The position numbers and the translations under genes were made by a program. Shown here one piece after another: positions 14,470 through 53,200 of a DNA stretch of 64,000 bases (within the stretch, counting starts at the first letter, position 1; every line of letters starts with the position of its first letter). The notes beneath the pieces are model-generated. The model was not told where the DNA came from. It saw only the letters and a list, made by a program, of their open reading frames with translations, and made no database searches. The DNA is from Eukaryota sp. TZLM1-RC. Its lineage: Eukaryota; Protista; Metamonada: BaSk clade. Where the stretch lies: the NCBI GenBank assembly GCA_040285825.1, contig JAUPSS010000003.1:3038001-3102000 (forward strand), given 5' to 3'.

Positions 14470-14877
14470 CTACACAGCAAGATCTGATAGGTCGGACGGA
14501 ACAAACGACCCCGGTAGCAACTTTGAAACAGTCCATTCTTCCGTTTCCTGTGACAAATTGGTGAGCAACACAGGCATATCAGGGGAACAGAATTCAGCGA
14601 GAACTTGCCGACAGGCACCACAAGGCTTACACGCGGAAGGAGTATCGGCAACAATGGCTATAGCACTGAACTTTCGAAAGCCTTTCGCTAAGGCGGAAAA
14701 GATAGCAGTCCGTTCCGCACAATTCGTGAGTCCGTACGAGGCATTTTCCACATTGCAACCATGAAAGATAGTTCCATCTTCTGTGAGTAATGCAGCACCA
14801 ACAGCGAACTTAGAATAAGGAGCGTAAGCAAAAGAGCGTGCCTTGATGGCTTCTTGGATAAGCTTATCTGTTGTCAT
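14470..14877 (-). CDS. cdd: Cytidine deaminase (homotetrameric type)
   Basis: AYAPYSKFAVGAAL, GCNVENASYGLTNCAERTA, PCGACRQVLAEF zinc motifs. Confidence 0.95.
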   Translation of the reverse strand: MTTDKLIQEAIKARSFAYAPYSKFAVGAALLTEDGTIFHGCNVENASYGLTNCAERTAIFSALAKGFRKFSAIAIVADTPSACKPCGACRQVLAEFCSPDMPVLLTNLSQETEEWTVSKLLPGSFVPSDLSDLAV

Positions 14878-15294
14878 TCTACGGATATGATGATGGATAT
14901 GATAAGATATGCTGAGATTATACCATTAAGGTCAAAAAATAATTTGTTTGTCCTTGTCAAATCTTCACCTTTGTTATTTTTGTCACATAACGAAATTATA
15001 CACCATCTGTTTAGGGAAATTAAGAATAAACCACATGCGTACATTCTTGGAGCACATTAAGACGACATACACAAATGTTTGTCTGTTTCTGAACCATCCG
15101 TATTACACTGCCCAAATTGCACCAATCATCCACTAAGTCAGCTTGGTGGAAGAGTGGTTGATGTTAAAATCTAAGTATGAACCATACAAATTGTACATTT
15201 ATTTAATGTCCATAACAAGTGAAACAATACTATACACTGCCAATAGACAATAAAGAAGGGAATCAACAACAAAATAAGACATTGACTACCAGAG

Positions 15295-17838: not shown

Positions 17839-18642
17839 CTAAACACAAGTGTAACCTCCATCAATTGGCAAAATAACACCTGTACAGTAGCTGGAACCCT
17901 TAGCAGCCAAGAAAAGTGTGGCAGTATCCAACTCACCTGGTTCACCATGTCGGTTCATTGGGCAAACGGTCTTTAACCATGCTTGGAATGATTCGGTAGT
18001 CAAGAGCTCTTCAGTGAGTTCGGAAATAAAAAATCCAGGACACAAAGCATTAACTGTAATACCATGCTTAGCCCACTCAGCAGCCATTGATCTGGTCATG
18101 TTGTTGACAGCTGCCTTGGTGGCGTGATATGCAGTACAGTCCAATCCAGATCCAACGATTCCATACATGGAGGCAATGTTGATGATTCTACCATAGTTTT
18201 GTTCAATCATCAACTTGCCGAATTCACGGGAGACCTTGAAGACGGAAGTCAAGTTCAATTCCACAACAAAGTTCCAATCTTCATCACTGAATTCAGCAGA
18301 GGCACCACCCTTGTTACCACCAGCATTGTTGATCTTTGGTTATTATACAAAACAACATACAAGAACATCACAACGACCCAGTTCAGTTTTGACAGTTTCT
18401 ACTGCAGCTTTAACGGCTTCAGTGTCGGTGACGTCACACTTGACAGGAACACACTTGACACCCAACTTGCGTATTTCCTTGGCAACGGTTTCAAGCTTCT
18501 CGACACGGCGAGCCAAAAGAGCTACATCAGCACCTTGGCGAGCAAGAGCCATACTCATTTGGACACCAATGCCAGAGGAAGCACCAGTTACAACAGCAAC
18601 TTGTCCTTTGAAATCGAAGGGGGACGTTTGGTTATCGAGCAT
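17839..18642 (-). CDS. Short-chain dehydrogenase/reductase (gluconate-5-dehydrogenase/FabG-like), 2 exons, intron 18334-18360
   Basis: TGASSGIG, DVL|INNAG (restored by removing a 27-nt GTATG...CAAAG intron that contains in-frame stops), YHATK catalytic motif, IDGGY C-terminus. Confidence 0.92.
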
Positions 18643-19453
18643 AACGAACTGTAAGTGGGAATAATGACATCCCAAAGTTATTCATATATGACCTTTTGTT
18701 TAGATCAAAAATCGAAGACTGTTCAATGATAGTCTTGAATCCTAGATTACAAGAAGAGTTTATCTAGTGGAGGATGCAAGTTCATAAGAGTAGGTACTGT
18801 TTGTTCACAGATACTTACCTTCCACTGCCAGTCAAAAATACGTCATCACCCCTATGAAGGGAAAGAATTATTTTTTATACTGTTATATAAGGGTACAATA
18901 CCTCCATGAAGCACTGTTCCAATCTACAAACGAAAGCATTAAATCACAAGTCATTTGAAAGGAATTACAATGAGTCATGACACTTCACAAAATAAACATA
19001 GAACTATTTCATTAGAAACAATGAAACAAGTTTTTGCGGGGAATCTAGTTCAAATTTGGAAAAATTATATGTAATGTCTTGTTGCAAGTCAAATCACATT
19101 GTCCAGGCAACGTCACATACATTCTACCCTGATACCGAAGGAAGAAACAACAAATTCTTATTACAAACAGCTTGACTCATTCAAACTTCCCTGATCACAT
19201 TCATAGCAAACGGAGTTGATATAGGGGGAAACAGTGTTACACTTTGCTCACGATAATTTATTGACTCGATTCTTTCACAAAATCCAGTTTCACCAATGAT
19301 TGGAGACGCTTCAAATTATACTCTAATCCGCTTAGCCACCCACAACTGTAGCATTTCAAAAAGGTTTGTTGAAAAATAATCAAAATTGAACAATTTATGG
19401 CACTCATTTGAATCAATGGTCGAATTCTCTACACAATAGACGATAGCTGTAAT

Positions 19454-20428: not shown

Positions 20429-20745
20429 GCAAATTCCGGAATGAGAATGCAATGTGAATTTCACTTATCATACATACCCTGTGCATTCTCAATGTCTACT
20501 CACAGGCTGTAAAAGGCATGTAGCGTCATTTGACAAAGACATTCATGATCTTCATCAATGGGCTACCTCACTGAAAATGCACCTACTGCTTTCACAGAAC
20601 AAAGCCTCGCGACTTGATGTATCTAAGTGGATCTATCAAATACTACTAAGGCATTTATAGATCGGTCTCAAAAGTTTTTAAGAACAGTAAAAATAAAATA
20701 ATAGTTTTTCAAAAGTTTTAGTTTCTGTTCATTAAGGTTCCTCAT

Positions 20746-22900
20746 TCATCTCCTCAACAGAGCTTCTGGGCAAATGTATCTTTCCGGCCACAATTCCGCT
20801 TTCTTCTTAATTTGAATATTTTTTGCAGCGGAAATATCTCTGTCATATACTATTTGACACTCAGTACAAATACGCATCTGCCATAAGCCTGCTTGAATAT
20901 TCTTGGCCATACAACAACTGGACAGTTTGCTTGTATTAAATTCACTGGTTTAAAAGTGCTTTACGTCCTTTTGATAACACAACCATTTTCTGAAAGGTCT
21001 TGCTGATCCATATCGATTGACTTTTCGGCAATGAGAAGCAAAATTAGCAGAACCCACAGCAAGATAGAGTTTTTCAGAATATCCAGCCAGCCTTTGAAAT
21101 TCGTTGAGCCTCTCTCAGAACTTTTTTTTACCAAAATTTTAATTTTATTCAAAACCTATAAATCAACATCTAAAAAATCCATCTCTCCCAGAACAAAAAC
21201 ACTAGATGCAACTCTCTTATAGTGAGATCCAAGAGAAAGCAAAGCATCAGAGACCATCTTCAACATCCCCTTAAAAATAGAAAACACAATTCTATTTTAC
21301 CAAAACAATCTGTTGAAATTTCTGCCAGTTCTTCTCTTTACAATCATTTCAAAATCATCCAAAAAACGTAAAGCAGTTGGTGCAAGTGAACCAAAAAGGG
21401 AAAATACAAATGGATACAAATTGTATTTTGCATGCTGTAGACTGGCCAATTTGGACAAAGGTTCATTGTATTTTTAAATTTAAAATTTTCAGCATTTGAA
21501 AGGGGATTATGAATTTCAGAATTAACTAGCCTTTCATTTGAGGCATTACAAGGATCAACAGACATTACATCCAATAAAATGAAACTTCCATCTAATCCAG
21601 GTAATATAACATCACCTCTATTATTCTTATGAAAATCATCTTCAGCATCAAACAGATTTGACAACAGAGGTTCCAAGAAGGATTCAATTCTATGAGATTT
21701 ACACATACAATATAACTGGTTTCTTACAGCATCATGAACCTTGCTTCTAAAAGTAATAAAATGTTTACAATTTAACAAATGAGTAGTTGTAATTTCTCGA
21801 GAACATTTACAAATTAAATTATGAGGTAAATTATCAGGCCAGATAAAGGAACGAAATCTCATATTCAGAGTCCAAGCAGAATCGGATAAGAGAGTACCAT
21901 AAACTTGTGGAATTGTTGTTACTAAGGCAGAAGAAGTACTGTCAAACATATCTTGTAAAAGATTTGCAAAAGCGGGATTCTTTTTCTTGGCCAAGCCAAG
22001 TCTAACATCAAAATCCAAGCTTTCAAAAATCTTTGACAATTTTTGTTGAAGCTTTTTACAGCAAAACTGTAAATTAAAAAGAGATCGGTTTGGAATTTCT
22101 TGAATTGATTGAGGAAAACATTTGGTCCAAATTTGTGGCGGCAATTTTTCAAGTTCACAAGATAACTCATACAAATAGGGACTGCAATTGGGGACTAACA
22201 GATGAGAATCATCAGAAATCTCTCAGAACCGTCTCTCTTTTCGTCTGCGGTTATCAAATTTAATCATTTTTCATTTCTGGCGATTACTTTCCAAGTACAC
22301 TTTCCTCCTGACCAAATTCCAATGGTTCAAATATTGGTTGAAATTTAGAACAGAATATTTGTTGGGAGAGTGTTTATTGGGTGAACGTTTTGTCATGTAT
22401 CTTCTGCCAGTTGGACAAGGGATAATTCCACATTGATTATCATTTAAGAAGTAACCACATAATCTAGATTGTCCTAAATCAATGCCGATAGGGGGCCTTT
22501 CAGGTAAAATTTCGACTGGATGTCTACGTCTTCCACGGGGCATTTTATTAGTGCCCTTCAACTGTACTTTTCTGGTTTTGTTGGCATCAGGGTCACTTTT
22601 TTTTAATCTTGTTTTCTGTTTCGGTGGTCCATCCAGCTCATCTGTGTTCATTGAGTCATTATTTTTATTTTGAAAGGTCAAAAGCATTTCATTACCATAA
22701 GTTTCCAATAAAATCTATTTAAATCTATTTTTCAAACTTTTTCTGTTGATATTAAATTTGTGGTAAGGGCATTGTTTGAATATTCGTTTCAGACATGTAT
22801 TTTTGATGAACTTTGTCTTGGAAACTGATCCTTCAATTAGTGGAAATTTTCTCACAGAGTGGAACAAATGTGAAGGTACCTCATGAAATATAGAACCTTT
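20746..22900 (-). pseudogene. Fanzor remnant (Fz-2), interrupted by a non-LTR insertion at 21122-22218
   Basis: ETYGNE..PIGIDLGQSRL (RuvC-I Asp, ORF 22271-22708). The frame continues across the TSD: ERLNEF..LYLAVGSANF..SEFNTSKLSSCC..CTEC..YDRDISAAKNI..* (RuvC-II Glu, Zn finger, RuvC-III Asp). Several in-frame stops. Confidence 0.85.
21122..22218 (-). mobile_element. 5'-truncated family A RLE non-LTR retrotransposon
   Basis: Near-identical to 40760-41850; poly(A) at 21122-21129; TSD TCTCTCAGAAC at 21111-21121 and 22219-22229. Confidence 0.92.
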
Positions 22901-22989
22901 ATGAGAAGCTAAAAAATTATTCTAAATTTCATCCAGCAATGATTATGAGAAAAAAAGTGAGTAAAACCAGTTTTTCTGCTTTTAGTAGA

Positions 22990-25900
22990 ATTTATTAATA
23001 GTTGGGATATAGGAACGTATGTAGACCAATTTCCGTAATCGTTTCAATCTATTAATAGTTTCCTTAAACATTGAAGAACGTCTCTATGTTTAAATTCTAC
23101 AAGTCCATTACTTTCTGAATAGTGGGGAATTGAGTTACTCATCTCAATCGCTAATCTGTTACACACTATTTTGAAAGTCTCATTGGCGAACTCAGGTCCA
23201 TTATCACTATGAATTAACATAGGTATGCCAGAGATAGCGCAAACATTCCAAATTAAGGCATCTGCGGTTTCTAAGGCATTGAGTTCTTTTAGAGGGACTA
23301 AGATTGTATATCCAGTAAAAGAGTCTACAAATACTAATAGATATTTATTTCCTTCGTTGTCAGAATTTAGGGGTCCAATTGTATCGACGTTTAATCTGGC
23401 AAAAGGACGATCTGCCCATAAAGATCCTGTGGAAGGTGTTTTTGATCTTTTAACTGGAGCCGTTTTTTGACAAGTTGGGCATCTTTTGACATGATTAATG
23501 AGGTCCTTTCTCATATTGGGCCAGTAGAAATCGCTTTTGGATAGTTTGTGTAAACTATCGTTTTTGCTAGGGTGACCAGATTGAACCAAACCATGTATTA
23601 ATAGTAGTGCCTGTTTTCTGAGGCTCTATGGAATCAAAATTTTGTTTTTATTTTTTTTCCAAATTTGAGTATTTTCATCTAGAATTGCATTTTCAAATAA
23701 CGAGTCGTTGTTGTTTTTGGCTATTTGTTGTTCAGATCTTATCTTAGAGAACCAAGAAGAAAAAATAGGTAGGTCTTGGTGTCTACTTAGAGATGAGATT
23801 GATGGGATGTCTTCAAGATCCGAATCGGAATCATCGTCTAGTGGAGGTATCTCGTAATTTGAAAGTAAAGTATCTGGTATATTTATGCTACAAATAGAAG
23901 GAGTTTCCTCGTTTTGATCCAAATCAATATTCCTCGATAACATATCTGCCCAATGGTTGTCTTCACCAGGTTCGTGGACTATGTCAAAGTCGAATTCAGA
24001 TAGTTTCGGCAGACATCTCTTTACAATTCTATTTTTCTCTGTAGCTGTAGCCAGAAATGCAATGTTTTTATGATCTGTGAAAATTGTTAAATGTCTAGTT
24101 AATAAGTAGCTTTCTAAACAACTTTCAGTTAAAATCAAAAGTATTGCATATAATTCTTTTTGTAAAGTGGACCATTTTCTTTGTGTTTCTGTAAGCAATC
24201 TACTATAGAATGACAAAGGTTTTACTTTCTTTTTATTTAGCGGGGTTCCTGCAGGGGAGTAGGGTTCAATTTCTTGCCAAATAACACCTCCTACTGCTAC
24301 ATCTGAAGCGTCAGTACTTATCAATACTCGCTTGCCCGGAGCTGGTAATTCAAGGGGCATGTGGTTTACTATTAAGTCTTTTATTTGATTTAAGTAATCG
24401 TCATGCTTGCTAGTCCATTTAATTATTCTGGGTTTTCCTTTAATTAGCTCGTTAATTGGAGCAATTAATTCAGAAATACCTGGAAGCCAATTTCTAATAT
24501 AATTGATGGATCCTACCAATGAGCGAACTTCTTTTACTGTTTTTGGTCTAGGGATTCTCATCAAGGCTTCGATTTTTTTCTTACTTATAAATCTAGTTTT
24601 ATCCTGGAAGGTACTTCCTAAAATATCGATAGGGTGTTTTGATGTTACGAATTTACATTTACGTAAGCCTATATTTACACGTCTATTTCTGGCGCATTGG
24701 AGGACTCTTTGTTATCTCTTATAAAATTCTTCGAATGTCGTTCCAACTATTATGGTATCGTCAATGTATATGAAAACGCCGTCTATTTGGAAAAATTCCG
24801 TCATAACGTTTTGAAAAACTGCTGGGATGTTCTTTAATCCGAAGCAAGCTCTTTTAAACATGATTGACCTTCCAGGAATTGAGATTGATGTTTTCTCAAT
24901 ATCCTTCTCAGCTACATTCATCTGCCAGAAAGCTTTTGGTAAATCAAGCGTGGCGATGTAATTTGCTCTACTCAAAAATTCTAAAATATCACTAATCCTA
25001 GGTAGATTAGGCTCTACTGAAATTGTATGGGCATTAACTCCATCTTTACCACTAAAGTCTCCAGTTAACCTGGGTTTCTTGCCGTCAGGATATATAACTA
25101 AGACGATAGAAAGAGCTGAATTTATAATTAGATTCAACTGCATAACCCATTTCGATCAGTTCATCGAATATTTTGTTTGCTATTTCCATTTTGCTGGGAT
25201 TTAACCGTCTAGCAGGCTTGTGTACTATAGCATTCTCATCTCTAAAGGGGATTGTTAGAGGATTACAATCGATTCCTTTTCTATTAGCAGTTTCACTAAA
25301 AACATCGCTGAATAATCTCAGTAGACTCGTTAATTTTAATTTATTATTACTATCATCTAAATTTATCTCACATCCAGATCTTGCTAATTGCTCCTCAAAA
25401 TCAGAAGGACTTGGTGATTGGTTATCTAAGTTCCCAATCGAATGTTGAGCGATCCTAGAGTCGAATTCTGATTCTGCATTTAGCAAAGTGCGGTGTTCTT
25501 TGTCTAATTTAATGAAAAGACCATCATCCGTCTGAAGCCTAAGTGCTTTTAACATGTCTGTCCCTATTAATAATTTGTTCGAACCCGGGATTATGGGAAG
25601 AGTATGTTTATAATGAACTTGTTGCGCAATGCTTCCTACGTTGAACGACAGAATACCAGTTGCACTCCCTAGCGATTTTGTGGATACGTTATTAGCTAAT
25701 AAGAACTTAATGGTATCCTTGCTATTGATTGACATATGGCATTGTTCAGCTAAATCTGCAATAATAACCGAACAAAACGCAGCCGAATCAATAATTGCAA
25801 TCATTTTCATATCATTTATTGATATCTCCAGTCTGTTAAATTGAGAACGCTGAAATCTGATGTGGTTTTCGCTAACCGTGAAATTTATATCAAAAATACT

Positions 25901-28900
25901 ATTGATATCAGAGCTTGTATGGTGAAATTTTAGAGGAATTGAGAGTTGTTGTAGGGCTGTTGGATAGTTCTTGACTGGGTTTCCTAAATCTGTTGCTGAT
26001 TGATTGATTGATTGATTTATTGATATCTCCAGTCTTAGAAATGGAGAAAGCTGGGATCTGATGTGGTTTTCACTAACCGTAGAATTAATATCAAAAATAC
26101 TATTGATATCAGCGCTGGTTTGGTGAATTTGTAGAGGAATTAAAGGATTTTGTTGAGCTGTTGGAAAGTTGTTGACCTGGTTTCCTAAATCGGTTGATGA
26201 TTGATTGTGATTGATTGCGTTGATATGTACCCGATTAGGTAAGTTGCCTGTCCTGCTGTTCCGGTTGCTGTTGTTGATCCGTCTGTGAGGAACCGTACTC
26301 GAACGGGTCGGTTTTGACTCAAAAGGGAATGCGTTTGATGATATATCCTCTGAAGTGTTGATGTTATTAATAGGTCTGTACTGACCTCTTCCTTTATGAC
26401 CTCTAAAACGGCCTCCACGGCCTCTAAATTTGAATCTATGTACACGTCTACCACGGCCACCTCGGCCCCTTTCTACACTGCCTCTACTAGCAGGCGCCTC
26501 CTGTTCTCCTAATCTGAATCTTTCTTCTTTGGGAACTCTGCTTCTAGCACAACGAGGGTCTTTGCATTCGAATACAGTGTGGCCAACAGGATTGTTACCT
26601 TCGACGTTGCTGCAGAATGTACAGAATTTTGACCCTTCTCCTTCATGCTTTTCAGAGATGTATTTCTGTTGAGGGGTTCATCTTGACTTTCCTCTTGATC
26701 GTCTTGCTCGTTTTGGTGGAGCCTGGGCTGATGGTGTTACTCCTCTCGAGTAAGTTCTCATCGCCGTGAGTCCCAAAGGAATATCTTCTTCGTTAGCCCT
26801 GTTCCTTAGTACGTCCATTGTGGGCTTGTTTCCTGCTGTGTAACACCAAGCGAGGAATTGTCTTCTCGTTGTCGATATTAAAACGAGTAAAGTTGTTCTG
26901 TTCGGTGAGTCTCACAAGGATTCCCTAGTCCATACTGGGAGGAGTTCGCTCGATATAGCAAAGTTATCCAAACCCATAAGGAAGTACTCGGCTATCAGAG
27001 CGGGAGATATGGTTATCATCCCACTGCTTCCTCTAATTAAATCGGGGATGGTTAGGTCGGTCATGTAGGTGGTCATTCTCAAGACGTCTCCAAAATCTTT
27101 TACATAACGACCAAACTCGTTGTCAGCCTAATGCCTATTGTGGATTTTTCTCCAGTTTATTTTAGGCTTCATTAGAGCTGTACAGGCCTCATGATATGAT
27201 GTGAATTGTGTTCTCTTTAACAGAAATACCATGACGTCGGCGTGGGTATAATCAACACCGAGTAAACCTTGATTTTGCCGTCTGGATAGAAGGCTAGGGT
27301 CAATCATGCTGGATATTCCTGTAGGGCAAGTGCTCATCATCATGCTCCTAAATAAATCATAATGGTGGATTGGGGGTCCGAGCTTATCTGTTATAGCTGG
27401 GTCAATCCTTACCAAAGGCTGTGTTGTATCCCTCGTGATTTCGTCGCGTATATGTTTGGGGAGATCTTTAATCCTATCTTGGGTTATTTCTGCTTGGCCT
27501 TCTCCAAATAGCTGGGTAGCTACATAAAGGCTCTGGTCCAATCTGATTGACCTGGGGCTTCAAAGCTTCTATTAGCTATCTTTCGCCCGCATTTATTCCA
27601 AGTTTGATATTTTAAAAGAAAAGCTATAAAAGACATTTTGTTGATAGGGTCATCAGCGGATAATCGAGGTCTTTTATAGTCGATATCCTTAGACCGTGGA
27701 TCAATCTGTCTATGAAGGCTACTAGCTATGCTCATGTCAATAGCTCTTTTTGAGGATTGTAGGTCCTCAATACGCATAGATCTGTTGGAAGAGGAGTTTC
27801 TTATTGAGGGTTGAGGAGGAGCCGTTTTTCCAACGACTGGCCCGTTCAACTCTATGTCTTCTTCGATTTCACGTTCCATAGGTTGGGAGGAAGTTGGTTC
27901 TTCCTGAGGAGCAACGTCTTGTCTAGTTACAGGTTCTGGGACGTTCACTGTTGGAACGTGTTCGGGTATGCTGTCAATACAGCAGACCTGTATTGGTTGG
28001 CTTTTTTCAGAAATTATAGGGGCTACAACAGGCAGTTTGGGAAGGTGGAGAGATGTGGATGGATCTCCCGTTACCCATTGTCTAAACTCTCGTTGTTTCG
28101 TGAACGAGTTACCATGTTGTTGGATGTAGTTGTTAGGACGGCTCCTATACGTGGATACAGCTGATCGTTCCGTATGATTGTTATTTAAAGCGTCTGCATC
28201 AAACCAGGGTGTTACTGGTTCAAGCTTGTCTTGTTCACTACTATCCTCCTGCACCATAAATTCCCTAAAATATGTGGGAGCACCCTCTGTCAGCTCCGTG
28301 TAATTATGGCTTACCGTATCAAAGTTAGGATCAAACCAGGCAGGCAATTTGGATTGTAGGATGTCTTCCGAGTCGGTCCTACTTCTCTGCTCGATGGAGA
28401 AAAACCTTATTCTCCTGCCGTGTTGATCTAGGAAGGAGGCCTTCCAATCCAATCTATCTTTGATGGGAAGAGACATCGTTTCATTGATTCTCTTGTCCAT
28501 TCCAGAGATTCTGGGGCGGCGCTCTGCGTTACGCCCGAATGTCTCTCTACGCAGTTTATCGAGTGCCTTTATGAGTTCATTCCTTTCATTGAGGGGAATT
28601 TCCAATACCTTTTGGGTATCCCCAATCATTCCGAGGGTCTGGAAACCAACGTTTATGCCTCTTTTTTGAATGTAACTCCATAAAAGGGGAAGCTGCTCGA
28701 ACAGACAGAAATCTGTTGGTTCGAGGTAAGGCTCCGCATCCTCTCTTAATAACTTGTAGAACCCCTCAGAAGAGTCGTCTTCTCCCTCCATTTCATCCAG
28801 TTGAGATTGAATTTCTTCATATTCTCCTAATGGGGAAGACGTGTCTAAGGTGGGATCTCCATCCGCTCCCTTTGAAACAGGTTCTAGAATTGGGAGGGGA

Positions 28901-29376
28901 GAGGGAGCCGGGTCCGTTCTCGTTGCCTCCGAGGACAATTCTGCATACTTGAGGGGAGAGGGAGCCGGGTCCGTTCTCGTTGCCTCTTCCATTGCTTTGA
29001 GGGGAGAGGGAGCCGGGTCCGTTCTCGTTACCTCTTCTGTTGTTGAAGATGGTGGGACCTCGTCCACTCTTTCATATTCTTCTATTTTAAGGGAGGGTGA
29101 GGTGGGATCCGGGTCCGTTGCCTCGTTACCCTCTATATCATGTATATGTGACGCTGGTACCTGCTGCATATTAAGTGGGGGATTAGAGTCAGAGATATCT
29201 TGTTGGAAGATGTCTGACATGCTGTAAAGTGTCTGGGGATGTTCACTAATGCTGAAGTTATGGTATACCTTTTGACTTTAAAATGGCCAATACTTATTGT
29301 TGCCTAAAGTCTATTGTAGTAAAAGAAAGTCTGATTTATTTTCTAATCATATTATATAAGCCTTAGGGCGCCAACA
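22990..29376 (-). mobile_element. Ty3/Gypsy LTR retrotransposon (Gypsy-1), decayed, 3' end and 3' LTR missing
   Basis: Long Ser/Pro/Glu-rich gag, protease (IIDSAA), RT (LDLPKAFWQ, YIDD), RNase H (TDAS..GG, TDHKN), integrase (GH..CPTCQ, VDSF, SDNGPEF). 5' LTR begins TGTTGGCGCC at 29376. Confidence 0.92.
28894..29124 (-). repeat. Coding repeats (ATRTDPAPSPL x3 plus one degenerate copy) in Gypsy-1 gag
   Basis: GAGGGGAGAGGGAGCCGGGTCCGTTCTCGTT repeated three times with variable spacers. Confidence 0.85.
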
Positions 29377-29759
29377 CGTTGTCCTTTGAAGGTGGATGAA
29401 TTTGGAACAGAACCAGTGGTGATAACGGTCATAAACAGATACCATAAATCTTGTTCCACTAAAGCTCTAGATGCCAACGGAAACTCGTTTTGCGTGTTTT
29501 TTATTCATCTTTGATTCATTTTTACCTGATACCTATTGAAACTGAAGTTGCAAAGAAGAAAGTCTCAGTTATTACTGCTCCTTCCTGCTCGTGAAGGACC
29601 CTGCATTTATGGGCTTTCATTAGATGGAGTAAGATGGAATGTTCAAGCTGGTTGTCTCGCTGAATCAGAACCCCAGGTACTTTTGGATGAAGAAATCTTA
29701 AAAAAATGCCCTCCGAAGGTGCCATGATTTTTTTGATCATCATTATGGTTCTTTTTCAA

Positions 29760-30215
29760 ACTCACAGATCTTTGCAAAACCTTTGGGTGACAATTTTCAG
29801 GATTATGTGAGTGAGTAACCACGTACATCTTTAGAGCACTGCTTACATGTCTGTTCCCATAAACGCCACATTTACTGATTTGACAGTGCAGCAGTCCATG
29901 CCAGGGGACTAGTTTAATATCATCTTTTTTATATTCCAATTTGGTTTAAAATCTTGAATTTTATTCTCATAATGTATCATGATGATTCTTCTTGGTTAGT
30001 CAAAAATAATTTTTGAATCTCTTATTTTGTGTTGAGATTTGTTGTACGCATTTCAATTTTTCAATTTTGTTGTTACCTTCTCGATTATTCTCATCAAAAG
30101 CAAGATCATCCCTAATAATTAAAGTGAATACCAGCTTTTCTGAGAAATCTTTTTAGTTCTGCACCTTTAATGGTGGTTACTTCCACGTCATAACCAGCAA
30201 TTGATACAATGATTT
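29760..30215 (-). pseudogene. Fanzor1 C-terminal remnant (Fz-3)
   Basis: IIVSIAGYD..TIKGAELKRFLRKAG, then WHGLLHCQISKC.VYGNRHVSSALKM..HPKVLQR, matching Fanzor1 HGLLxC..WNRD..SAxNM..RPxxLxR. Confidence 0.75.
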
Positions 30216-30765
30216 TCGAGAGATTCTAAAAAGTGGTATTGAAAAGTGGAATTGAGTCATCCCAATGTCATGAAAAAAATTAAAAAAAACTCTTTGAAAA
30301 CCAACTCTTCTGAGAATTGTGTGGAGATTAAACAATTAGTGGTGCTCAATATCAAGCAGTAATTTGGAAAAGCTCATAATGATTTGTTCTTTGTTGAAAT
30401 GATTTTTCAGAAAATTCTGGGAACAAATTTCTCTGTTGATCATTATGATGTTTCAACTTTTCCGAACTTCTTGGTTGAAAGTTCAAGTTGTTGTTATGAT
30501 TATGATGAATTATGACCGGGAGTTCTTCGTTGAGTGTTCTTTTGTGTACCCGATGGTTCTATTTGCACCTCATGTCAACCAACAAAACAGCTAATGTAGA
30601 TATCATGTTGTACAGCTGATCCACGTGTACATTTTTAGTACTCAAACAATTAATAAACATTTTATTCAGTCCAAAAAATCTGATACGAACTCCTCCAAAG
30701 AAAATCTACAGTGATACAATCTATAGAGTGATGTTTAATAGTTGAGATGAAGACTGTCTTTACAT

Positions 30766-30840
30766 TTAAACAAATCCGATGAGACCATTTTATCAATGTA
30801 GGCCGAAACGTTGACTGATCTTCATGTTAGAAGTGTTTAA
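30766..30840 (+). ncRNA. Degenerate type I hammerhead ribozyme candidate
   Basis: CCGATGAG (30776-30783, U4>C), stem II remnant, CGAAAC (30804-30809), stem III, GTT triplet (30826-30828), distal stem I TTAAACA/TGTTTAA. Confidence 0.5.
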
Positions 30841-31139
30841 GGTAGCGAGAAATAGTTAAGTGTGACACGATGTGGTATAAATTGAAAAATGTCAGCAACA
30901 GTAGATACAATCAATATTTAATGGAATGAGAACAGCATCTGATTGAGTCAGAAACACAAAAAAAGGATTAGGTAGGGATTAGGTAGGGAAGGAAAAAAAG
31001 GTTATTAGTATTCAACCTAAAATTCAACCACAGCGTTGGAAAATGATCCTGTAGTCAATTGATAAACATTTTATAAACAAATATATATTATAACAAATAT
31101 CATTCTAGTTATAGCTATCATATCCTTTTTTACATCCCA

Positions 31140-34100
31140 TAGGTTCACGTTGAATTTTATTGATCAACATTTTTCAAAATTAATTTCTGCCGCAGGAGAA
31201 ACGGACACGGAGCTTACGAAATTCAGAGTAGAATTGGTCTAACAAAGGACAAACATACTGAGGTTTAGAAACTGACCTAATGTACGTCATTCCAAGCGCT
31301 GTAATGGATTTAAACTTATTCTGTTGTATTGAAGGATGAAATATAACTGACGAAGGTGCAAGTTGTAGCAGCTTATACAGTAGACACAAGAAGGGAGTGG
31401 GTTTGAGATAGATGGAATATAGTCCAAAGTAGTAGCTTTTTGAATTACAAAAGCTTCGATGACCATAAACCACCATCGACGCAGGTTTGTCCAAAGTAGA
31501 GGTAGTACTGAACTGCCTCAGGAACCCAGAGATTTTCAAAATCTTGTTGCACCTAAATTTTCTGTTTCAAGTGTTAATGAATTTAAAAAATTGATGTGAT
31601 TCGGGGAAAGAAGAAAAATGTTAAAAAGAAACCTTTTATTGTTGATCCTGACCTTAATCAAAAAGTTAGTATGATCGCCCTCTTATTTGTTCAATTGATA
31701 TTGAAACCAAGGAAATTGGTGTTGAAATAACCAAGAAAAAAAGATATTAATAAAACTTTAGACAATTTGCGAGCTCAACAAAAGCAATCACAGTCAGAGC
31801 GACGTCGCCAAATGACTGATGATGAGCAATTGTTAGAACAACAGGTTTTTTTAGAACGGTAGGAAATTTTAATGATTTCTATGATTTTGTTTGAAATTGA
31901 CCATAATTGGGATACTATTTTCCATTCTCCGAGTATAAATTATGTTGCTAATTTAGAGGGAACGAGACGAGTGTTATCATGGACCAATGATAACAAACCA
32001 GTTTTTGATGTCTCATTGAATAAATTTGATCATGAACAACATCTATTGAAGTCATTTGCAGAATTCACTTATGATAAAAAAATGGTTGGTTGCTTAGGCC
32101 ATAATATTTTTAATTTTGATTTACCTGTGTTCGCTGTGCGATTATCACATTTTGGAATCACTTTTCCAATTTTGTCCCAAAGAATTGGTCTAAATGAATT
32201 ATATCTTCATCGACGATGGAGAGAAGTAATTCAGTTTTATGAAAATTTCACTATTTTGGACACTTTTGTGTTTGCCAGAAAATTCATTAAAATTAGATAT
32301 GGAGCTTCATTGAACAATTTAGCATATCATTTACTTGCTGAAACAATACTGAAACTTCACGATGAGTTTGAAAATTTATTACCTATTGATAGCCTCTATT
32401 CAAATAAGGCATTGAGAACATTAGGATCTCATTGTCTTCAGGATGCAATTCTTGTTTTCAAATTATTTATTCTATTCCAAAGGGATAAAATAATCAATCA
32501 GTCATTGTCTACAGTAAAGACCTCTGTTTCATCTACAGCAAGGTATAGAGAATAACAAGAAGAGTTACTTATAGCATCTGAGGTAGTGACTGCTGTGAGA
32601 CAACAAACTTCATTTTGTGTCAAACAGTATCTTTTAGTCAAATTCATGAAGAACGAAGATTTGACAAATTTTTGCTACAAACTATTCTATCACACAATGA
32701 TATGTTTGAAAAAATTATCTTCAAAGGTGCATCGGTTTAAATTAGCATTCGATAAACCAATACCAATGTTAAGAGATGATTTGAACAACTTTATTTTTGG
32801 GTTAGCAACTTATGATAACAACCTTGAATTCCCTGGGTATCACCATTGTGTTACTGAATACACCGACACTTCATCAATTTGCCATATGCCTAGACTAGAT
32901 TATAACCATGTAAGTTGTAAGCTGAAATGTGGCCTGCTTTTGAACTGAATATCAAAAGAAATTATCATTTATATATCAAAAGGTTCATTAATCATATAAT
33001 GGGAAAGAAAGATTTGGAAGATCTAATGAAGGAAGATTGGACAGAAGTTCCTCCAGATATTTTGCAACATTTGAATTATATGCAACGTCAAAGATTTCTC
33101 AGTTATTTTAGATTTCGTTTGAAAATTGTGAAGGATTTTATGACTGGTGGGGAGCGAAATGAATTAATTAATTACTTGCAAAATTTTGGAAATTCTGATC
33201 ACCCATCTAATGTATATTTTTTACAAGAAGTTATTAAATATTTTGATGATTCTACAACCGATGTTGTGTTTGAAACCACAAATTATTTGATGGAAGAAGG
33301 TGTCACATTATTATTGGAGCACTAGTTGTCTATAATTTTCCCAAATATTATCCAAATTAATGAATGCATTGGAACAGAAAATGTGCAAGTCAAAATACTG
33401 CAATACACCCTTGAAAAGTATCCTTTATTTTTTCTGAAACCATCATTTCAAATAATTCAATATTTAGAAGGAATTGAAGCAAAATTGTTTAATGTCATTC
33501 CACTTAATATGGGTAGTAAACCTGGATACTTTCCAATAGACACGCGAACATTGTGGGGTATTGGGAAAACTGCTATGGGTAATTTAGATGGAAAACCTCG
33601 ATTTAAGCAAGTCCAAAATTATATGTGTATGGCTGATATTGGTAGTCTAACTCACAATCAACAAAATTCTTATTGGGACAGATGGCTCAACACTAATAAC
33701 AAATCTTTCACGAAAAATGGTTTCAAATTCAATAATTACGCAGTAACCAATGGTATAAGTATTTGTTTTCAGTTTGTGAGAGAAGATCTCGCAGGATTAA
33801 CCTTTAAACCTGATTCAAATATTGCCAAGGTATCAGTCTCTTATTTTGATCACCTTGATCCTGAAGATTATAGTGATAAAAATGTGGTTTTTGGTGATCT
33901 TGGAAAGAGAGATTTAATTCAATTTGGAGCACAGTCGAAGAATCCATTTCAAATCCACTGAAAAAACATGAATGGATGAGGCTAACATATGGTGAATGGT
34001 CACGTCTCAATAGAAAACACAAACAAGTGTTACAATTTTGTGTTAGACAAAATAATGGTAATAGTGAAGACCAGACAATGACCATTGAGGAATGGAATTC

Positions 34101-34755
34101 GTGGTTACGTGATCATGATTCAATAACTGTTGATTACCACAAATTCAGAGAGTTTATGTTGGCCAAGCGTAAACACTACAATGAGCGAAACAATTCCACA
34201 GTTTACCCTTATGGAGGATACATAATATCCAAAGTTATATCCATAGGCAAAAAACTGAAGAAAGAATTGTGAACAAGTTATTGACAACATTCGGTGGTAA
34301 AGACAAAATGGTATTGTGTATCGGGACTTGGGTCGTAAACCAATCAGTAATCTCAAACATAGTCCCCCAACTCCTTCCAATAGATGGATAAGTTGTTATA
34401 TTAGACGACTAATTAAACTGTTCTAATTGATGAAAGCCATACTTCTTCAAAGTGTCCTTCTTGCTTTGAAAAAGTGTTTGAAACAACTATCAAAACAAAA
34501 AATCCAATTCCTAAAAGTGCTGAAAAAACACCGTTCAAATTTCCTCATGGGCTTTTGGAATGTAGAAGTTCTCAGTGTATTAATGATGCAAAAACACGAT
34601 GTAAAAAGTCAGAAAGTGGAGAAGCAGTCAAGGCAAAGTATTGGAATAGGAACAAGATGGCTTGTTTGAATATGTTGAATGTATTTGATCACTGGTTATC
34701 CGCTGAAGAAGGTGGGCCTGTTTATCTTAGAACTCAGTTTATTTTTACTGACTAG
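31140..34755 (+). pseudogene. Family-B DNA polymerase N-terminal/3'-5' exonuclease domain fused to a full-length Fanzor1 (Fz-4), disrupted
   Basis: ExoI CSIDIET (31688-31708), ExoII GHNIFNFDLP and ExoIII HCLQDA. In the same frame STVKTSV..VTAVRQQTSFCVKQYLL, then ELNIKRNY..RFIN, KLFNVIPL..PGYFPIDT, FNNYAVTNGISI, FGDLGKRDLI (RuvC-I), HRQKTEE, IDESHTSSKCPSC, HGLLECRSSQC, WNRNKMACLNM, GPVYLR. Confidence 0.85.
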
Positions 34756-34830
34756 TAAAATCTAGTCATAGTTGGCATGCGCTATAGCAATACTGTTTCC
34801 AATATCAGTGCTGTAAGATGTGCTGAGAGA
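34749..34830 (+). ncRNA. Candidate omega-RNA scaffold region of Fz-4
   Basis: Three consecutive hairpins starting on the stop codon: TGACTAG-TAAAAT-CTAGTCA, ATAGT-TGGCATGC-GCTAT, CAATACTG-TTTCCAATAT-CAGTGCTG. Fanzor guides are encoded at the 3' end of the ORF. Confidence 0.4.
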
Positions 34831-35012
34831 ACTGCAAAAAATGATTTGTATTATATTATTTACTACTGCAAACATAAAAAACATCTTCACTTGCACATAA
34901 TTATTGTACCCGTAGAAGACACTGAAGTGAGAAATTCAACTTAAGAGTGTTGTAGTGTACACCTTGTAATAAACACAAAATTTATACAAAACAAATGAAC
35001 AAAGCAAAACTA

Positions 35013-36895: not shown

Positions 36896-38700
36896 TGTGC
36901 TTGTAATGCATTGGTTGGACATTACGAATGTACAACCAGATTGATTTTTTCACCAAAAATGTTTGTGAAAGAGAAACAAAACCATCGTTCTATTTTTCAC
37001 AAATCGAGTCAAATCAGACAAATCAAAATGGACGTCTTATTGGTTCTTGGGCGATCAAATACATGTTTGTTTGTATCAGTTAGGATAATATTAACGAAGA
37101 CGTTGATGTAAGTAGTATATATGAGGTTATTGAATCCAATTCGTCATCATTAATAGATTTCCCACTTAGTTTCAATCAAATCAAAAAAAGCTACAGCCAA
37201 TAAACGAGCATATCATGACAATGAGGTAATCATGGTTAAATGAATTTCGATCCCATAGCTTTGAGTTTCTTTTATTTGTTGTAATTTTTTGTACAAACAA
37301 ACTCTCTCTTTTTCCCTCACAATGAATAACTTTGAATACGCGAAAAATTGAATTACTGTATGTGGGTCAATAAAAGAAAGATATGTTAAGGCTATCCGAA
37401 TTACGAGAATGCACTGATATAATAATAACGTTGAATATTCCATCACCTTAAAAGGATGTAAAACTGGTTCCCTGTCACGGATTGTCACACTGTCAAAACA
37501 GTCAATGGGTTTTGCCATACCTGAGCCCAACCGTTGTGGAGAGAAGTGTCTATATGGTGTTTTTGTTTTAGCTTCAACAAAGGAGTATTAAATTTGATTA
37601 CTAGAATCATCTTGATTATACATTATTTGTCCATTGAATTAATAGATTGTGGTGACATGTAGTTTTTAAAACTTACCCTCATAGTGTATGTAGAAGAGCT
37701 TTCTGTAAACTAGTACCCAATACTGAGCGCTGACAATTAATAAAAGACAATTGAAGCAGTTGTTGTTGATACCAACAAATACAACAAATATGTAAATAAA
37801 TACGGTCTAAAAGTCAGTAGAGTTCTCTCTTTGAAAGCAAGGTAAAGTTAATGCTATGATGAGCTCTCATTACATTTCTCACTTGAACGTTGCCAAAAAC
37901 AATGATCAGAAGCACGTAGAAGTGAAGTTGTGTGGATTATTACAGAAGTCATTTTGTTTGACTACTAATTCTCACAGTAAATTGTTTTGTTGTTCGTGTT
38001 GTTTCCTCATTCGCTGTAAATCGAAAAGAGATAGGAAATAATTTTAGTGGTGTATGAAGATAGTAATAGCTTCTATTCTCAAACCGAATGAAGATTATTC
38101 AAGGGGCAGTCCTGTGGAATTGACAATTCTTACTATTACAAGCTAATAAAATAAGACATGTAGAAATGAGAGACTTTTTTCCCTTGTAGGACCTGGGATT
38201 GGTTACCCTCAAAAACGGATCAATCTGTTCAATAAAACCGGAAATTTTGCTGAAGCAAACGCTTCATTAACCATCAATACTTAAAATCGATTTTTTCAGA
38301 AATTACCAATCCAATAGTTTGAGCAAATTGACAATGTTATAAATTTTTAGAACACTGTTTACAATAATTGCAACAGAGTTCCAACCTCCACAAAGAAATC
38401 AATACTACATTTGCAGAAGAATAAAAACTATTTTCACCTTGATGAAATTAACATTCACAAAATAGTTCAACTTCGTGTTTTCACAGCAGAATACTTCCTA
38501 GTTCCGCTCAAAAAACGATCCTTTGAATTCATCTGCTAATGTTGACAACAATCGAAGGGGTATTGCCAAAAGCGATGTAATGGTCTAAGACTTTAACAAA
38601 TAATACATAAAATTATGATGTGTCTTATGAACTGAATTTGAAAGACAAGACAAATAATATATTCCGCAAACAAAAAAGAGACTAAAAAACTAAAAATGAA

Positions 38701-48881: not shown

Positions 48882-49610
48882 CTATACAGATTCAGACAAC
48901 TCATCTACAAATTGTTCTGGGTCATCCACACATTCGTAGCCATATTCGTGAGCTCTTTTCTTTGCGTTCTCGTCCACAATTGGAGCAATAAGATAAACGC
49001 GCACTTCAGATAATCCTTTCTTTTCTTTAACGAACTCGACCTTCCTTGCTAATTTATCTACATCTTCACTCCTTACATGACCTTTGATTTCCACAATAAA
49101 TGACACACCATTCAGTGCAACAATGTCCAATTCCACTGGCACTGGTCGGCCATCTTTGTCAAGCCTTTGTGGGTCCTGGTCTTCAAACCACTGAACTGTG
49201 TAATCTGGAGCTGATATGCTCAGTAAAGTTTTCAGTGCATTTCTCCAGGTTCTTTCGTTTTTCAGACCCCAGCGAGCCCCAAGTGTTCCCAGCTGAATAT
49301 CCATATGAGCCTTGTCCTGGTTTCTTTCCCTTTGTCGTTGTTCATGGTCTTCTTGACGTTCCCTTTGTCGTTGTTCATGGTCTTCTTGACGTTCCCTTTG
49401 TCGTTGTTCATGGTCTTCTTGACGTTCCCTTTGTCGTTGTTCATGGTCTTCTTGACGTTCCCTTTGTCGTTGTTCATGGTCTTCTTTGCGCCATTGTCGC
49501 ATTGTTTCAATGAGCTTATCAATTGCTGTTTCACTAACAGCTTCAGATCTAATCAACTGTTTGAGTCTTTCAACAAATTCTCTGTTCTGGAAGAGGCGGT
49601 CGACATCCAT
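48882..49610 (-). CDS. DUF3782-like coiled-coil PD-(D/E)XK nuclease-fold protein (prokaryote-type)
   Basis: Coiled coil, then LGARWG..E..WR, VELDIV, IVEIK, DVDKLARK..LIAPIVD..AKK. Confidence 0.75.
   Translation of the reverse strand: MDVDRLFQNREFVERLKQLIRSEAVSETAIDKLIETMRQWRKEDHEQRQRERQEDHEQRQRERQEDHEQRQRERQEDHEQRQRERQEDHEQRQRERNQDKAHMDIQLGTLGARWGLKNERTWRNALKTLLSISAPDYTVQWFEDQDPQRLDKDGRPVPVELDIVALNGVSFIVEIKGHVRSEDVDKLARKVEFVKEKKGLSEVRVYLIAPIVDENAKKRAHEYGYECVDDPEQFVDELSESV
49326..49486 (-). repeat. Perfect 33-bp coding tandem repeat, about 4.9 copies (RQEDHEQRQRE)
   Basis: Unit TTCCCTTTGTCGTTGTTCATGGTCTTCTTGACG. Confidence 0.95.
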
Positions 49611-49994
49611 TTCGCATTCTGCTGGTGTAGTAGAGATTCTGGTTAAATGAATAAAGAAATCCTTGTCTGTTCATGTAGATGTCTTTTTATTGTTTACAGC
49701 TCGGGTTAGCAACTCCTCAGTCTTCACTTTGATCAAGGACTTGATGGAGAACAACTTTTTCATTATATATGGAAGCAGAAAGTCAATAGATTGAACTAGA
49801 TAGTGATGATTTGTGTAAGATTTTGGAATGTTGGAATTACTCACCATATCACCTTTGAGGTGATAAAACAACCAATATTGCTGGTTTTCATGGATCGACT
49901 AAATCGGCAAATATGATGTGTCACCCCAAAGACAAGACTGTCCGTAAACGATCGACATGGCTGAGACTTTAAAAGTAATGGGATAAAGAATAAA

Positions 49995-50040
49995 TGTTGG
50001 CGCCCTGAGGCTTATATGTTATGATTAGAAAATAAATCAA
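49995..50040 (+). mobile_element. LTR fragment or solo LTR start of the Gypsy-1 family
   Basis: TGTTGGCGCCCTGAGGCTTATATGTTATGATTAGAAAATAAATCA matches the reverse complement of 29332-29376 with few mismatches; far end not resolved. Confidence 0.65.
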
Positions 50041-50289
50041 CTTTTCCTCATTCGCTTTATGTTAACCCCACTTTTCCATCCTACGGCATCAGAAGTAAAA
50101 AGAATAAATAAGGTTATTAAGGTAACATTGTAATCAATCAGTTACTATTGTAGGTATCTCACTAGACAGAACCTTTATATAATATTTAAGTTTAAATAAT
50201 ATTATCTTTATCCTAACCACATTTACTCAATTCATATACTAACATCCAGCTAGCAAATACGATTTTCAGCAACACTTAACAAAATGAAC

Positions 50290-53200
50290 AGAGAACTGAA
50301 GGGACGAAATTCATTGAACCAAGCTTTCCTTTACAAAAACTTGTTCTGCTTGCTTCCTTGCTATAGCTTGACTTGAAAAATTGAACAATAATGGTATAAT
50401 CCATTAATCAAGGCAAATTGGATTCGAGACCAGCAAAGGCAAATATCAACCTTTTTCATTGTCTTCTCTTCAATTATTTTTCTGACAGTACTTCAAAAAA
50501 GATTCAGCTTCTAACGCTAGTCTTTATTCTCTAATGAAAAGCAATAATTCAATTTTTCCGTTTTTTTGATGGTCTAGGCTGTTGGTTATTGTCAGACATA
50601 CAATGTAGAGTAACAGAAGTGTAATTTATTACGAAGAGGAATTGTATTCTCTCTTCTTAAGCTAACAGGCGGAATACTAATAACTAAACTATTAACTATA
50701 AATACTATTCAAGACTAACACTGCCTTTTCCTCTCTTTCGAGCGACGAGCCCTGGAAGCTCTAGTCACAGGAGGTGAACTAATGGAAATATGACGCTTCT
50801 TGGGAGGAGCGGATTTAGTACGGCGACGTGCTTTTGAAGTCTTGATAAAGTCTTTATACGCGGCAGTATTTTGGACTGTAGACACATGTTCAGTGGTGAT
50901 CTCTTTTCCAGGCCATTGCACTTGGCAAAAGTCACCGTCCTGACTGAGCACCTTTTCAATGATGTGTTCTTCGACATCACCTGCAGCGACCCAGGAGTGG
51001 AACTCATCGTTGGTGGGCAAGCTGGAGTGCCAGGGTGCTAAATGTTTGACGCTAGCTTGGACAATCGTACCTGTGCAGAGGTTCTTGATATTCACAGACG
51101 AATTGGATACGATTTCAGTAATTAGGAAGGGTCCTAAATAGTCTCCATGAAGCTTAGCGGAAGAGCCAGATGCTCTCAATACCAATTGACCAACTTCAAA
51201 AGGGTTTGGAGTTGACGATCTAGTTAGCTTGGAAGCTTTGGAAGCTTGATGGTGTGCTGCCTTTTCCTGTTTCTCTTTCAATCTTCGAAATTTAGATTGA
51301 ATTTCTTGAATAAAAGATGACTCAGACGTCGAGCTTTCAATGATTTCAAGAATTTTGCCAGGGTCTGATCTGGGGGACACATCTGAGCCAAAGATCACTT
51401 GGTATGGGGTGTGGTTGGTTATTGAGCTCTTGGAAGAGTTGATCAATAATTGCACATAAGGCAAGTATTCAGACCACACATCGTAGGCATTGAAGTCTAC
51501 GAGCAATTTCCGTAGGTTTTGCAGGATGTCTCTGTGTCGGCGCTCTACCAAGCCGTTGGACGGAGAAAACCTAGGTATTGACTTTGACACCTCTATGCCC
51601 AAAAATTTGCTTAATTCGTCAAAGACAGCCTTGGAAAATTCGGGTCCATTATCGCTGTGGATTTGAAATGGAATACCAAAGATGGCACAGACTTTCCAAA
51701 TTAATGCATCTGCAGTAAGATTGGCATTTATCTCTTTTAAAGGCACGATGATCGTGAACCTAGAGAAGCTGTCAATAAATACGAGGATGTATTTGTAGCC
51801 TTCTTGATCTTCTGGAAGAGGACCAATGACGTCGGCGTTGACACGAGCAAAAGGTCTGTCAGCCCACAATGAACCGGTTGGGGGAACATGCAGTTTGGGA
51901 ACTGGCTTTGTTTTCTGACAGGAGGGGCATTCTTGGACGTGCTTATTCATGTCGGTGAGCATGTTTGGCCACCAATAGTCGCTGTTCCTGAGCTTGTTCA
52001 GGCTTTCAGCTTTGCTTGGATGACCTCCTTGCAGAAGTCCATGCAACAAGTTAAGGGTGTCCTTAATGAGTGATTTGGGGATCACTATCTTGTTGTCGTG
52101 AGTCATATATAAATCAATATGATCGTTATGAACACAGTTGTTGAAAGAGGGGTCTTTGGAAGCTATGGCAAGCTTCTGTTCGGACCTAATCCTACAGAGC
52201 CATGGCTCGAAAATAGGCAGGTCGTTGGAACATCGTTCTCTGATGACCATGATACGTTCGAAGTTGTTTAAGTCTTCGATGTAGTATCTTTCATTTTCTG
52301 TTCCATCAATTTTATCAATGTAAAATATTGGATGAAAATTAGGAGGCATTTGATGGGACAAATGATTGATCTCTTGATGGTCTATAGGCGGAACTATTCG
52401 AGACAACATATCAGCCCAGAAGTTATCTTCCCCTTTGGTATGTACCAAATCAAAGCAGAATTCAGAGAATATGAGTAACCATCTTGTTACAATTCTGTTC
52501 TTCTCAGGAGCCGTGAACATGTAGGTAGGGTTTTGATGGTCTGTGAATATAACCAGTTTCCTTCCTTTCAAGTAGTTTTCAAAACCACTTTGAGTTAACA
52601 TGAGTAGGATAGCATAGAGTTCCTTTTGGTTTGTCGGCCAGTTCTTTTGCGAGTTGGTTAACAACCGGCTGAAGAAGCTGATAGGCCTACATTTCCTGTT
52701 GATCAGGGGGGTACCGGGGTCGTCGACTTGTTCGACTTGTTCCCAAATCACGCCGCCTACAGCAATGTCGGATGCGTCGCAACTAATTAAAATTTGGTTT
52801 TCCAGCGGAGGTAAGCTGAGCGGCATGTGCTTTGCTATCAGTTGTTTGATCTTTTGAAGGAGTCCGTCGTGCATGTCGGTCCATTGAAGGCGTTGCGCGC
52901 GGGGTTTGGGTTTAACTTTGGAGTTATTTCCATCCTTCTTAGTCAATCTGATGATAGGAGCGATGAGCTCAGATACCTGAGGAAGCCATTCTCTAATGAA
53001 GTTGACTGATCCTACGAGGCTGCGGACGTCTTTGATTGTCTTTGGTCTAGGTAGATTCAGCAAAGATTCAACGCGAGTGGGATCGATAGTCCGCTGTTTG
53101 TTTTGGAAAACACTGCCCAGTATCTTGATTGGGTGTCTGGAAGACACGAAATGGCACTTTGAAGGTCCCAAGGAAACTCTTTTGCATCTGGCTTGATCAA

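Follow-up and report, generated by a model that had tools for sequence, protein, structure and literature searches.

A family-B polymerase-type proofreading exonuclease fused to Fanzor1 nucleases in Skoliomonas-type metamonad genomes

What is the proofreading domain of a DNA polymerase doing in front of an RNA-guided nuclease? The question is raised by a locus of Eukaryota sp. TZLM1-RC, lying in a stretch of 64,000 nucleotides (nt) that was analysed as a whole (contig JAUPSS010000003.1, positions 3,038,001 to 3,102,000; hereafter the window). An initial annotation had described, at 31140-34755, a chimeric gene in which the 3'-5' exonuclease of a family-B DNA polymerase runs into a Fanzor1. The copy in the window is a dead, 5'-truncated member of a multicopy Fanzor1 family, and the fusion is real rather than the result of a chance insertion. 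Judged by their sequences, the fusion proteins are old, conserved and multicopy, with catalytic motifs intact in both halves.

How far does the fusion extend? The family was found in three related Skoliomonas-type genomes, those of TZLM1-RC, GEM-RC1 and TZLM3-RCL. (The latter two are described as Skoliomonas strains, soda-lake metamonads with genomes that are 28-55% repetitive; PMC11316075. TZLM1-RC, a label absent from that paper, is probably S. litria.) When 1.84 billion representatives were searched with a profile, 1041 matched, and the best 150 matches were examined. The clade, delimited by hand, comprises 68 proteins, 44 of them uninformative fragments and 24 informative in having the Fanzor start and more than 30 residues upstream of it. 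All 24 carry exonuclease sequence before the Fanzor start, in agreement with the stable fusion first proposed, and no copies without the exonuclease, the case envisaged as fatal to that proposal, appeared among them. Within the same best 150 of 1041 matches, none of the 85 outgroup Fanzor1 proteins with a Fanzor start carries an exonuclease; only in two of these does the upstream sequence exceed 150 residues, and neither has an exonuclease according to Pfam. A profile of the exonuclease, built from 12 clade members, matches nine proteins among the best 150, all of them clade members; six of the nine, along with additional cluster members, are independently assigned PF03104 by Pfam. The intact copies that the initial annotation suggested looking for do exist as single open reading frames (ORFs), namely P0010 (KAL0226007.1, 1233 aa), P0033, P0182 and P0183. 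The family is multicopy, with clusters of 11 and 18 gene models spread over several contigs plus more subfamilies, and Fanzor remnants elsewhere in the window further support a distribution like that of a mobile element. In a tree built on the Fanzor part, a single long branch unites 17 clade proteins and separates them from the 45 outgroup proteins included, out of 97 (support 1.0 in FastTree and 100 in the Shimodaira-Hasegawa-like approximate likelihood ratio test), and the branching order within the clade is poorly resolved.

Other searches returned little. Scans of metagenome contigs and viral contigs with single proteins gave no relatives, a word-based search with the exonuclease region recovered P0004 alone among 696 candidates, and an alignment-based search limited to proteins of 1573-4490 aa gave no match. 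Neither the word-based search nor the 1573-4490 aa alignment search recovered a donor polymerase, the host's own Pol delta included. Giant-virus Fanzor1 models top the viral library, and none is described there with an exonuclease.

Could the arrangement be a one-off accident, in which a Fanzor landed in a polymerase fragment at this locus or was joined to one by chance, or an artefact of assembly or gene modelling? The heavy decay of the window copy would fit such an origin. However, the fusion occurs in three species and ten subfamilies with its catalytic residues conserved, the two halves share a frame in genomic DNA, and contigs from two samples cross the junction. An accident is therefore exceedingly improbable, and the intact copies and the clade-wide fusion refute it.

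How was the fusion made, and what has been kept? Ten subfamilies retain the catalytic acids and a junction free of gaps. The exonuclease cores of seven subfamilies, when compared, are only 31-58% identical. The ExoI DxE is present in 9/9 subfamilies that cover ExoI and the ExoII Asp in 10/10, while the YxxxD of ExoIII is kept in 9/10, the exception (P0054) retaining the Asp. The catalytic D-E-D-Y-D set is complete in intact relatives, whereas the window copy is frameshifted and has His for Tyr. From the ExoIII Asp to a Lys or Arg of the Fanzor 25 residues on, there is no gap in any of the ten subfamilies covering the junction, and every subfamily has an aromatic residue at D+21 and the K/R at D+25. 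In the relatives, the Fanzor starts 20 residues past the ExoIII Asp and, in intact ones, extends from its canonical first strand, at position 14-15 of the profile, through to the end; on the other side, the alignment to Pol delta stops just past the ExoIII helix. Only the exonuclease came over from the polymerase, and the captured part stops directly behind this helix. Because the acids and the junction are conserved, the Fanzor half is full-length and the Pol delta alignment ends where it does, we infer a single grafting of a clean exonuclease domain onto an intact Fanzor1, which preceded the split of the species and has persisted since. An element boundary at the junction, which would have pointed to a Fanzor transposon sitting in a polymerase gene, is excluded indirectly by the same gap-free conservation in ten subfamilies and three species and by the contigs that cross it.

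Structure agrees with both halves of the assignment. A first fold, from a 10-sequence alignment, reached a predicted local distance difference test score (pLDDT) of 36 and was not used; the AlphaFold2 model of the relative P0183, from 112 sequences, has a pLDDT of 81.5 and a predicted template modelling score of 0.73. Residues 132-381 of this model match Pol delta (its residues 313-536; Z 15.6, root-mean-square deviation (rmsd) 3.1, 180 aligned), and residues 383-1096 match SpuFz1 (Z 27.3, rmsd 3.3, 572 aligned). The Fanzor half is a Fanzor1 by full-length homology and by its WED-REC-RuvC-TNB fold, with a RuvC triad (D, rearranged E, D or N) and a C4 zinc finger. Its likeness to SpuFz1, PpFz1 and GtFz1 (8GKH/9CEY, 9CF0 and 9CER in the Protein Data Bank, PDB) covers the entire fold, beginning with the first WED strand and reaching the C-terminus (Z 22.6-27.3), and includes the rearranged RuvC with its zinc finger. 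In front of this, the clade proteins add an exonuclease of about 250 residues and a long linker, and in several subfamilies a 2A-like peptide and a protease, so that they measure 1100-1280 aa against 600-850 aa for known Fanzor1 proteins. The exonuclease, for its part, has the ExoI/II/III DEDDy motifs and fold of family-B polymerase proofreading domains, without the N-terminal or polymerase domains of those enzymes. Unlike them, it bears, after ExoI and before the following strand, a charged insert of 40-55 residues that is predicted to form two helices and is present in every subfamily; this insert could bind nucleic acid.

From which polymerase did the domain come? The exonuclease profile matches yeast Pol delta (E 3.6e-10), RB69 gp43 (1e-8) and a herpesvirus polymerase (1.2e-7), whereas the structural matches to Pol delta, alpha and epsilon are tied (Z 15.0-15.6). 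Sequence thus slightly favours Pol delta as the nearest relative, and structure does not separate the three. In the Atlas, PF03104 clusters are of mixed viral, bacterial and eukaryotic origin.

The copy in the window retains most of this anatomy:

31477-31687 (+): what is left, after 5' truncation, of the N-terminal linker, which is basic and of low complexity; equivalent to residues 147-216 of intact P0010 (tblastn to P0010, P0013 and P0008)
31688-32474 (+): family-B polymerase-type DEDDy 3'-5' exonuclease domain (Pfam PF03104; Pol delta as top PDB match)
31688-31708 (+): ExoI, CSIDIET
about 31710-31860 (+): clade-specific charged insert after ExoI, predicted helical
near 31736 and at 31860 (+): breaks in the exonuclease, a frameshift and a stop
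32097-32120 (+): ExoII, GHNIFNFD
32430-32447 (+): ExoIII, HCLQDA
32475-32501 (+): fixed-length junction, from the ExoIII helix to the first Fanzor strand
32502-34755 (+): complete Fanzor1 (WED/REC, RuvC, zinc finger), from a profile of other Fanzor1 proteins and PDB matches
32508-32525 (+): STVKTS, the Fanzor1 N-terminal signature
32553 (TAA) and 33323 (+): stops in Fanzor1
near 32923, 33936, 34184, 34324 and 34416 (+): frameshifts in Fanzor1
33896, 34432 and 34651 (+): RuvC triad D, E and N
34756-34889 (+): candidate right end and omegaRNA region, placed by analogy to Fanzor1 loci (PMC10432273)

Aligned to intact P0010 over 31477-34734, the copy is identical at 1010 of 1073 residues (94%), with eight frameshifts and three stops, in line with the several stops and frameshifts seen in the initial annotation. 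The three DEDD motifs, STVKTS, the TAA at 32553, the RuvC motifs and the zinc finger that it named are all present. Its uninterrupted frame exists for part of the distance: the stop-free frame 31863-32552 holds ExoII, ExoIII and the Fanzor start together, while ExoI sits in a different frame and is parted from ExoII by a frameshift and the stop at 31860. The window exonuclease nevertheless passes Pfam PF03104 (E 3.5e-6, 27 bits against a cut-off of 23), where a miss had been named as grounds for dropping the proposal, and at E<=10 all 24 of its PDB matches are family-B polymerases; the Fanzor part matches PpFz1 (3e-17) and SpuFz1 (2.3e-16). The ExoIII His is likely decay, since the residue is Tyr in 21/21 other copies listed. 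Polymerase motifs A, B and C are missing from all six frames of the window, as had been noted; only the exonuclease portion, and not a whole family-B DNA polymerase, is present at the locus.

One part of the earlier description has to be given up. A polymerase N-terminal-like stretch (FFKINF / ETDL / MDLNL) had been included in the gene, but homology to intact copies begins only at 31477 (tblastn with P0010, P0013 and P0008), and contig 9 of public run X2 diverges from the window at 31476. The supposed motifs are split over two frames and unmatched in intact copies. In 31140-31476, Pfam finds nothing in the three plus frames and two frames tested against the PDB give no significant match; a weak likeness to Pol epsilon (domain E 19) ranks under unrelated matches and was rejected. 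The public-run contigs, all from one study, represent other alleles or copies of the locus, and none covers it completely; run X4 contributes no contig here. The junction is crossed by contigs 4 (run X1) and 19 (run X3), which come from two samples; near the right end, one contig departs after 34786 and another departs left of 34890.

Is the Fanzor half of the family still a nuclease? The initial annotation was right about the RuvC motifs, except that the third acidic position is Asn and not Asp. The triad reads D-E-N in the window copy and in intact relatives, and the RuvC-III Asn occurs in 18 of 19 clade sequences matched by pattern, against 7 of 99 in the outgroup. The idea that this Asn makes the RuvC dead was rejected: GtFz1 shares the D-E-N triad and is reported as active, and SpuFz1 D606N as more active than wild type (PMC11423790).

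What, then, might the exonuclease do? On the model of TnpB, a homing-like mode of propagation has been proposed for Fanzors (PMC10432273), and the literature describes how breaks of the TnpB type at empty sites drive copying by homologous recombination. The reading preferred here, which has about an even chance of being correct, is that one and the same protein, guided by RNA, first cleaves sites lacking the element and then shortens the resulting end, which lets repair copy the element back into the site. SpuFz1 and GtFz1 are reported to cleave the non-target strand 14-17 nt past the target-adjacent motif (TAM; PMC10432273). When the Fanzor half cut an empty site, the 3' end on the TAM side would thus keep 14-17 nt of right-flank bases. 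Since right-flank DNA does not pair with an element-carrying donor, these bases would form a 3' non-homologous tail whichever end invades, and the tail would be the same single strand that is displaced in the Fanzor's own R-loop. Yeast Pol delta proofreading is reported to excise 3' non-homologous tails and to chew back invading ends (PMC9477423); therefore a proofreading domain that the Fanzor had captured and carried at its N-terminus could do this step in cis, and the trimmed break would be repaired by copying the element. There is a partial precedent in T4, where the polymerase proofreading domain (43Exo) and DexA are reported to assist homing of the td intron (PMC2988022, PMC12153337). 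There too a selfish endonuclease (I-TevI) relies on 3'-5' exonucleases, one of them a family-B proofreading domain, although in T4 they are phage proteins in their own right and the nuclease finds its site by protein guidance.

The same anatomy would also fit with a destructive cutter, in which the exonuclease chews both ends, so that exact rejoining fails and deletions or destroyed targets result (empty alleles, rival elements or invading viral DNA), in the manner of engineered TREX2-Cas9 fusions. Engineered exonuclease-Cas fusions are reported to raise editing (PMC13370227; bioRxiv 10.1101/2025.09.16.676532), and the window contains many other mobile elements. However, no guide array or foreign target was found. 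Moreover, the proofreading domains of family-B polymerases act best on 3' ends that are single-stranded or frayed and only weakly on duplex DNA, and destruction is an unlikely purpose, if a conceivable one. Trimming need not concern DNA at all: DEDDy exonucleases include RNases, and the domain might instead trim the 3' end of the omegaRNA precursor and so set the length of the guide. The omegaRNA is described as processed from the element's 3' transcript (PMC10530073, PMC10432273). Such a role in guide maturation is very unlikely, as the strong sequence and structure matches are all to proofreading domains of DNA polymerases, which act on DNA.

The intact copies carry further features upstream that had gone unnoticed in the initial annotation, namely a 2A-like peptide and a protease. 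A 2A-like motif lies upstream of the linker in eight proteins of five subfamilies: P0010, P0013, P0020 and P0185 (three subfamilies) have the canonical D(V/I)ExNPGP core, within the general 2A pattern (D/G/C/N)(V/I)ExNPGP, and four proteins of two subfamilies have a variant with H for E. P0185, P0044 and P0054, from three subfamilies, also have the upstream motif DLTxDG (classified according to PMC12846837). Core and upstream motif are those of the 2A/StopGo sequences of non-LTR (non-long terminal repeat) retrotransposons and RNA viruses, and skipping activity is predicted; unlike the known cases, the peptide here lies inside a Fanzor ORF, and two subfamilies have the H for E. The motif is absent from the outgroup Fanzor proteins compared and from the gene models of subfamilies C and E. 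NPGP is also absent from the window, where the truncated copy lacks the upstream 2A-like peptide. The word Fanzor does not occur in the searched text of 2A surveys, PMC12846837 among them. After the 2A-like peptide, P0054 has a SENP8/Ulp1-like protease (E 3.7e-4 to SENP8) and P0185 a likeness to C48 proteases that falls under the cut-off (E 0.0018), whereas in P0013 there is only a catalytic-cysteine-like motif, recognised by eye, before the 2A. The protease thus follows the peptide in two subfamilies and apparently precedes it in one. In addition, P0182 (KAL0221217.1, TZLM3-RCL) is a 2027-aa gene model in which a DEAH-type helicase is linked to the exonuclease-Fanzor; it may combine real cargo or be a product of merging two genes in the prediction.

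This gathering of other cargo in the N-terminal region (the SENP8/Ulp1-like protease, and the DEAH helicase in one gene model) raises the question of whether the exonuclease is also cargo, active but merely co-translated, and serving some other step of the element such as end processing while a transposase acting in trans moves the element, or the clearing of DNA intermediates. DEDDh nucleases are known as separate transposon accessory proteins, in P and piggyBac elements (PMC3627910). But protease, helicase and 2A differ among subfamilies in presence and order, whereas the length of the exonuclease-Fanzor junction never does, and although the element possesses a 2A-like device, none stands between exonuclease and Fanzor. 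A cargo role is accordingly quite unlikely. Under the cut-and-trim reading, the upstream leader would be split off from the exonuclease-Fanzor product by the 2A-like peptide. The full picture, a natural cut-and-trim RNA-guided enzyme in which the proofreading domain captured from a replicative polymerase would act in cis to make the enzyme's own offset break homology-ready, serving programmed homing of a transposase-free element from a 2A-processed polyprotein with a deneddylase/deSUMOylase-like protease, is put forward tentatively, as a possibility short of an even chance. (Transposase domains were absent above the cut-off from the clade proteins scanned; Spu-1 is likewise described as multicopy with no transposase seen, PMC10432273.)

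Several observations weigh against cutting and trimming in cis. Removal of such tails should already be covered by the host's own Pol delta and flap nucleases, and all 85 outgroup Fanzor1 proteins do without an exonuclease domain. In the P0183 model, linker residues 379-381 have pLDDT below 50, and any placement of the exonuclease relative to the cut is tentative. The family is seen only in three related genomes, in automatic gene models with many fragments. At the window copy, the single-sequence fold of 34756-34889 is no better than shuffles (z -0.41), Rfam has no match for this candidate omegaRNA region, and no pair of terminal inverted repeats was found around the truncated copy.

The surroundings are those of a eukaryotic genome, with genes for La, Ulp1 and Vps41 amid many non-LTR and gypsy retroelements. 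Further Fanzor remnants lie at 235-937 (+), 20740-21105 (-), 29730-29963 (-) and 38111-38322 (-), all with the 3' (C-terminal) part only, as expected of ghost-like or 5'-truncated copies; a possible fifth, at 37450-37507, resembles 29869-29928. Between back-to-back Fanzor remnants, about 1.5 kb (29964-31476) has no assigned homology. A decayed minus-strand Fanzor at 29950-31476 was considered, with no support beyond 29730-29963, and 30200-31500 has no phage DNA match. Gypsy-type LTR retrotransposons occupy 50566-57966 and 22718-29277 (-), the former being probably recent because its 155-nt terminal direct repeats are 100% identical. A 51-nt repeat occurs at 29326-29376 and 49995-50044 (92% identity), and the last 11 residues of the truncated Fanzor model P0011 match its translation, which suggests that an element with this repeat interrupted the P0011 copy. 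At 48885-49670 (-) there is a PD-(D/E)XK / DUF3782 nuclease-like gene, of families that we take to be mainly prokaryotic, in which 33-nt tandem repeats encode a coiled coil; what look by eye like a cytidine deaminase (14473-14925, -) and a short-chain dehydrogenase (17842-18681, -) are bacterial in appearance.

Has such a protein been seen before? Across the titles and abstract openings of the open full-text literature searched (subscription papers lie outside it), no natural fusion of a Fanzor or TnpB to an exonuclease is described. In their main text, PMC3627910, PMC10711439, PMC10432273 and PMC10691335 do not use the word "exonuclease", and neither it nor "DNA_pol_B" occurs in the portion of the PMC10530073 supplement text searched. 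The exonuclease-Fanzor1 proteins are a natural variant of Fanzor1, old within its lineage and of narrow known range. Comparable designs are engineered: TREX2-SpCas9 and T5Exo-Cas12j also join an RNA-guided nuclease to an exonuclease, but they are man-made and use other exonuclease families, whereas the Fanzor fusion is natural and long conserved. It offers a natural counterpart to the exonuclease-Cas fusions of genome editing, and intact coding sequences of it are public, among them KAL0226007.1, KAL0221781.1 and KAL0210696.1. PMC10432273 calls the biological role of Fanzors unknown; here, the homing hypothesis becomes testable by comparing the same protein with and without exonuclease activity. 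The capture of this domain, and its retention at an invariant junction over deep divergence, suggest that a step after the cut limits the success of the element.

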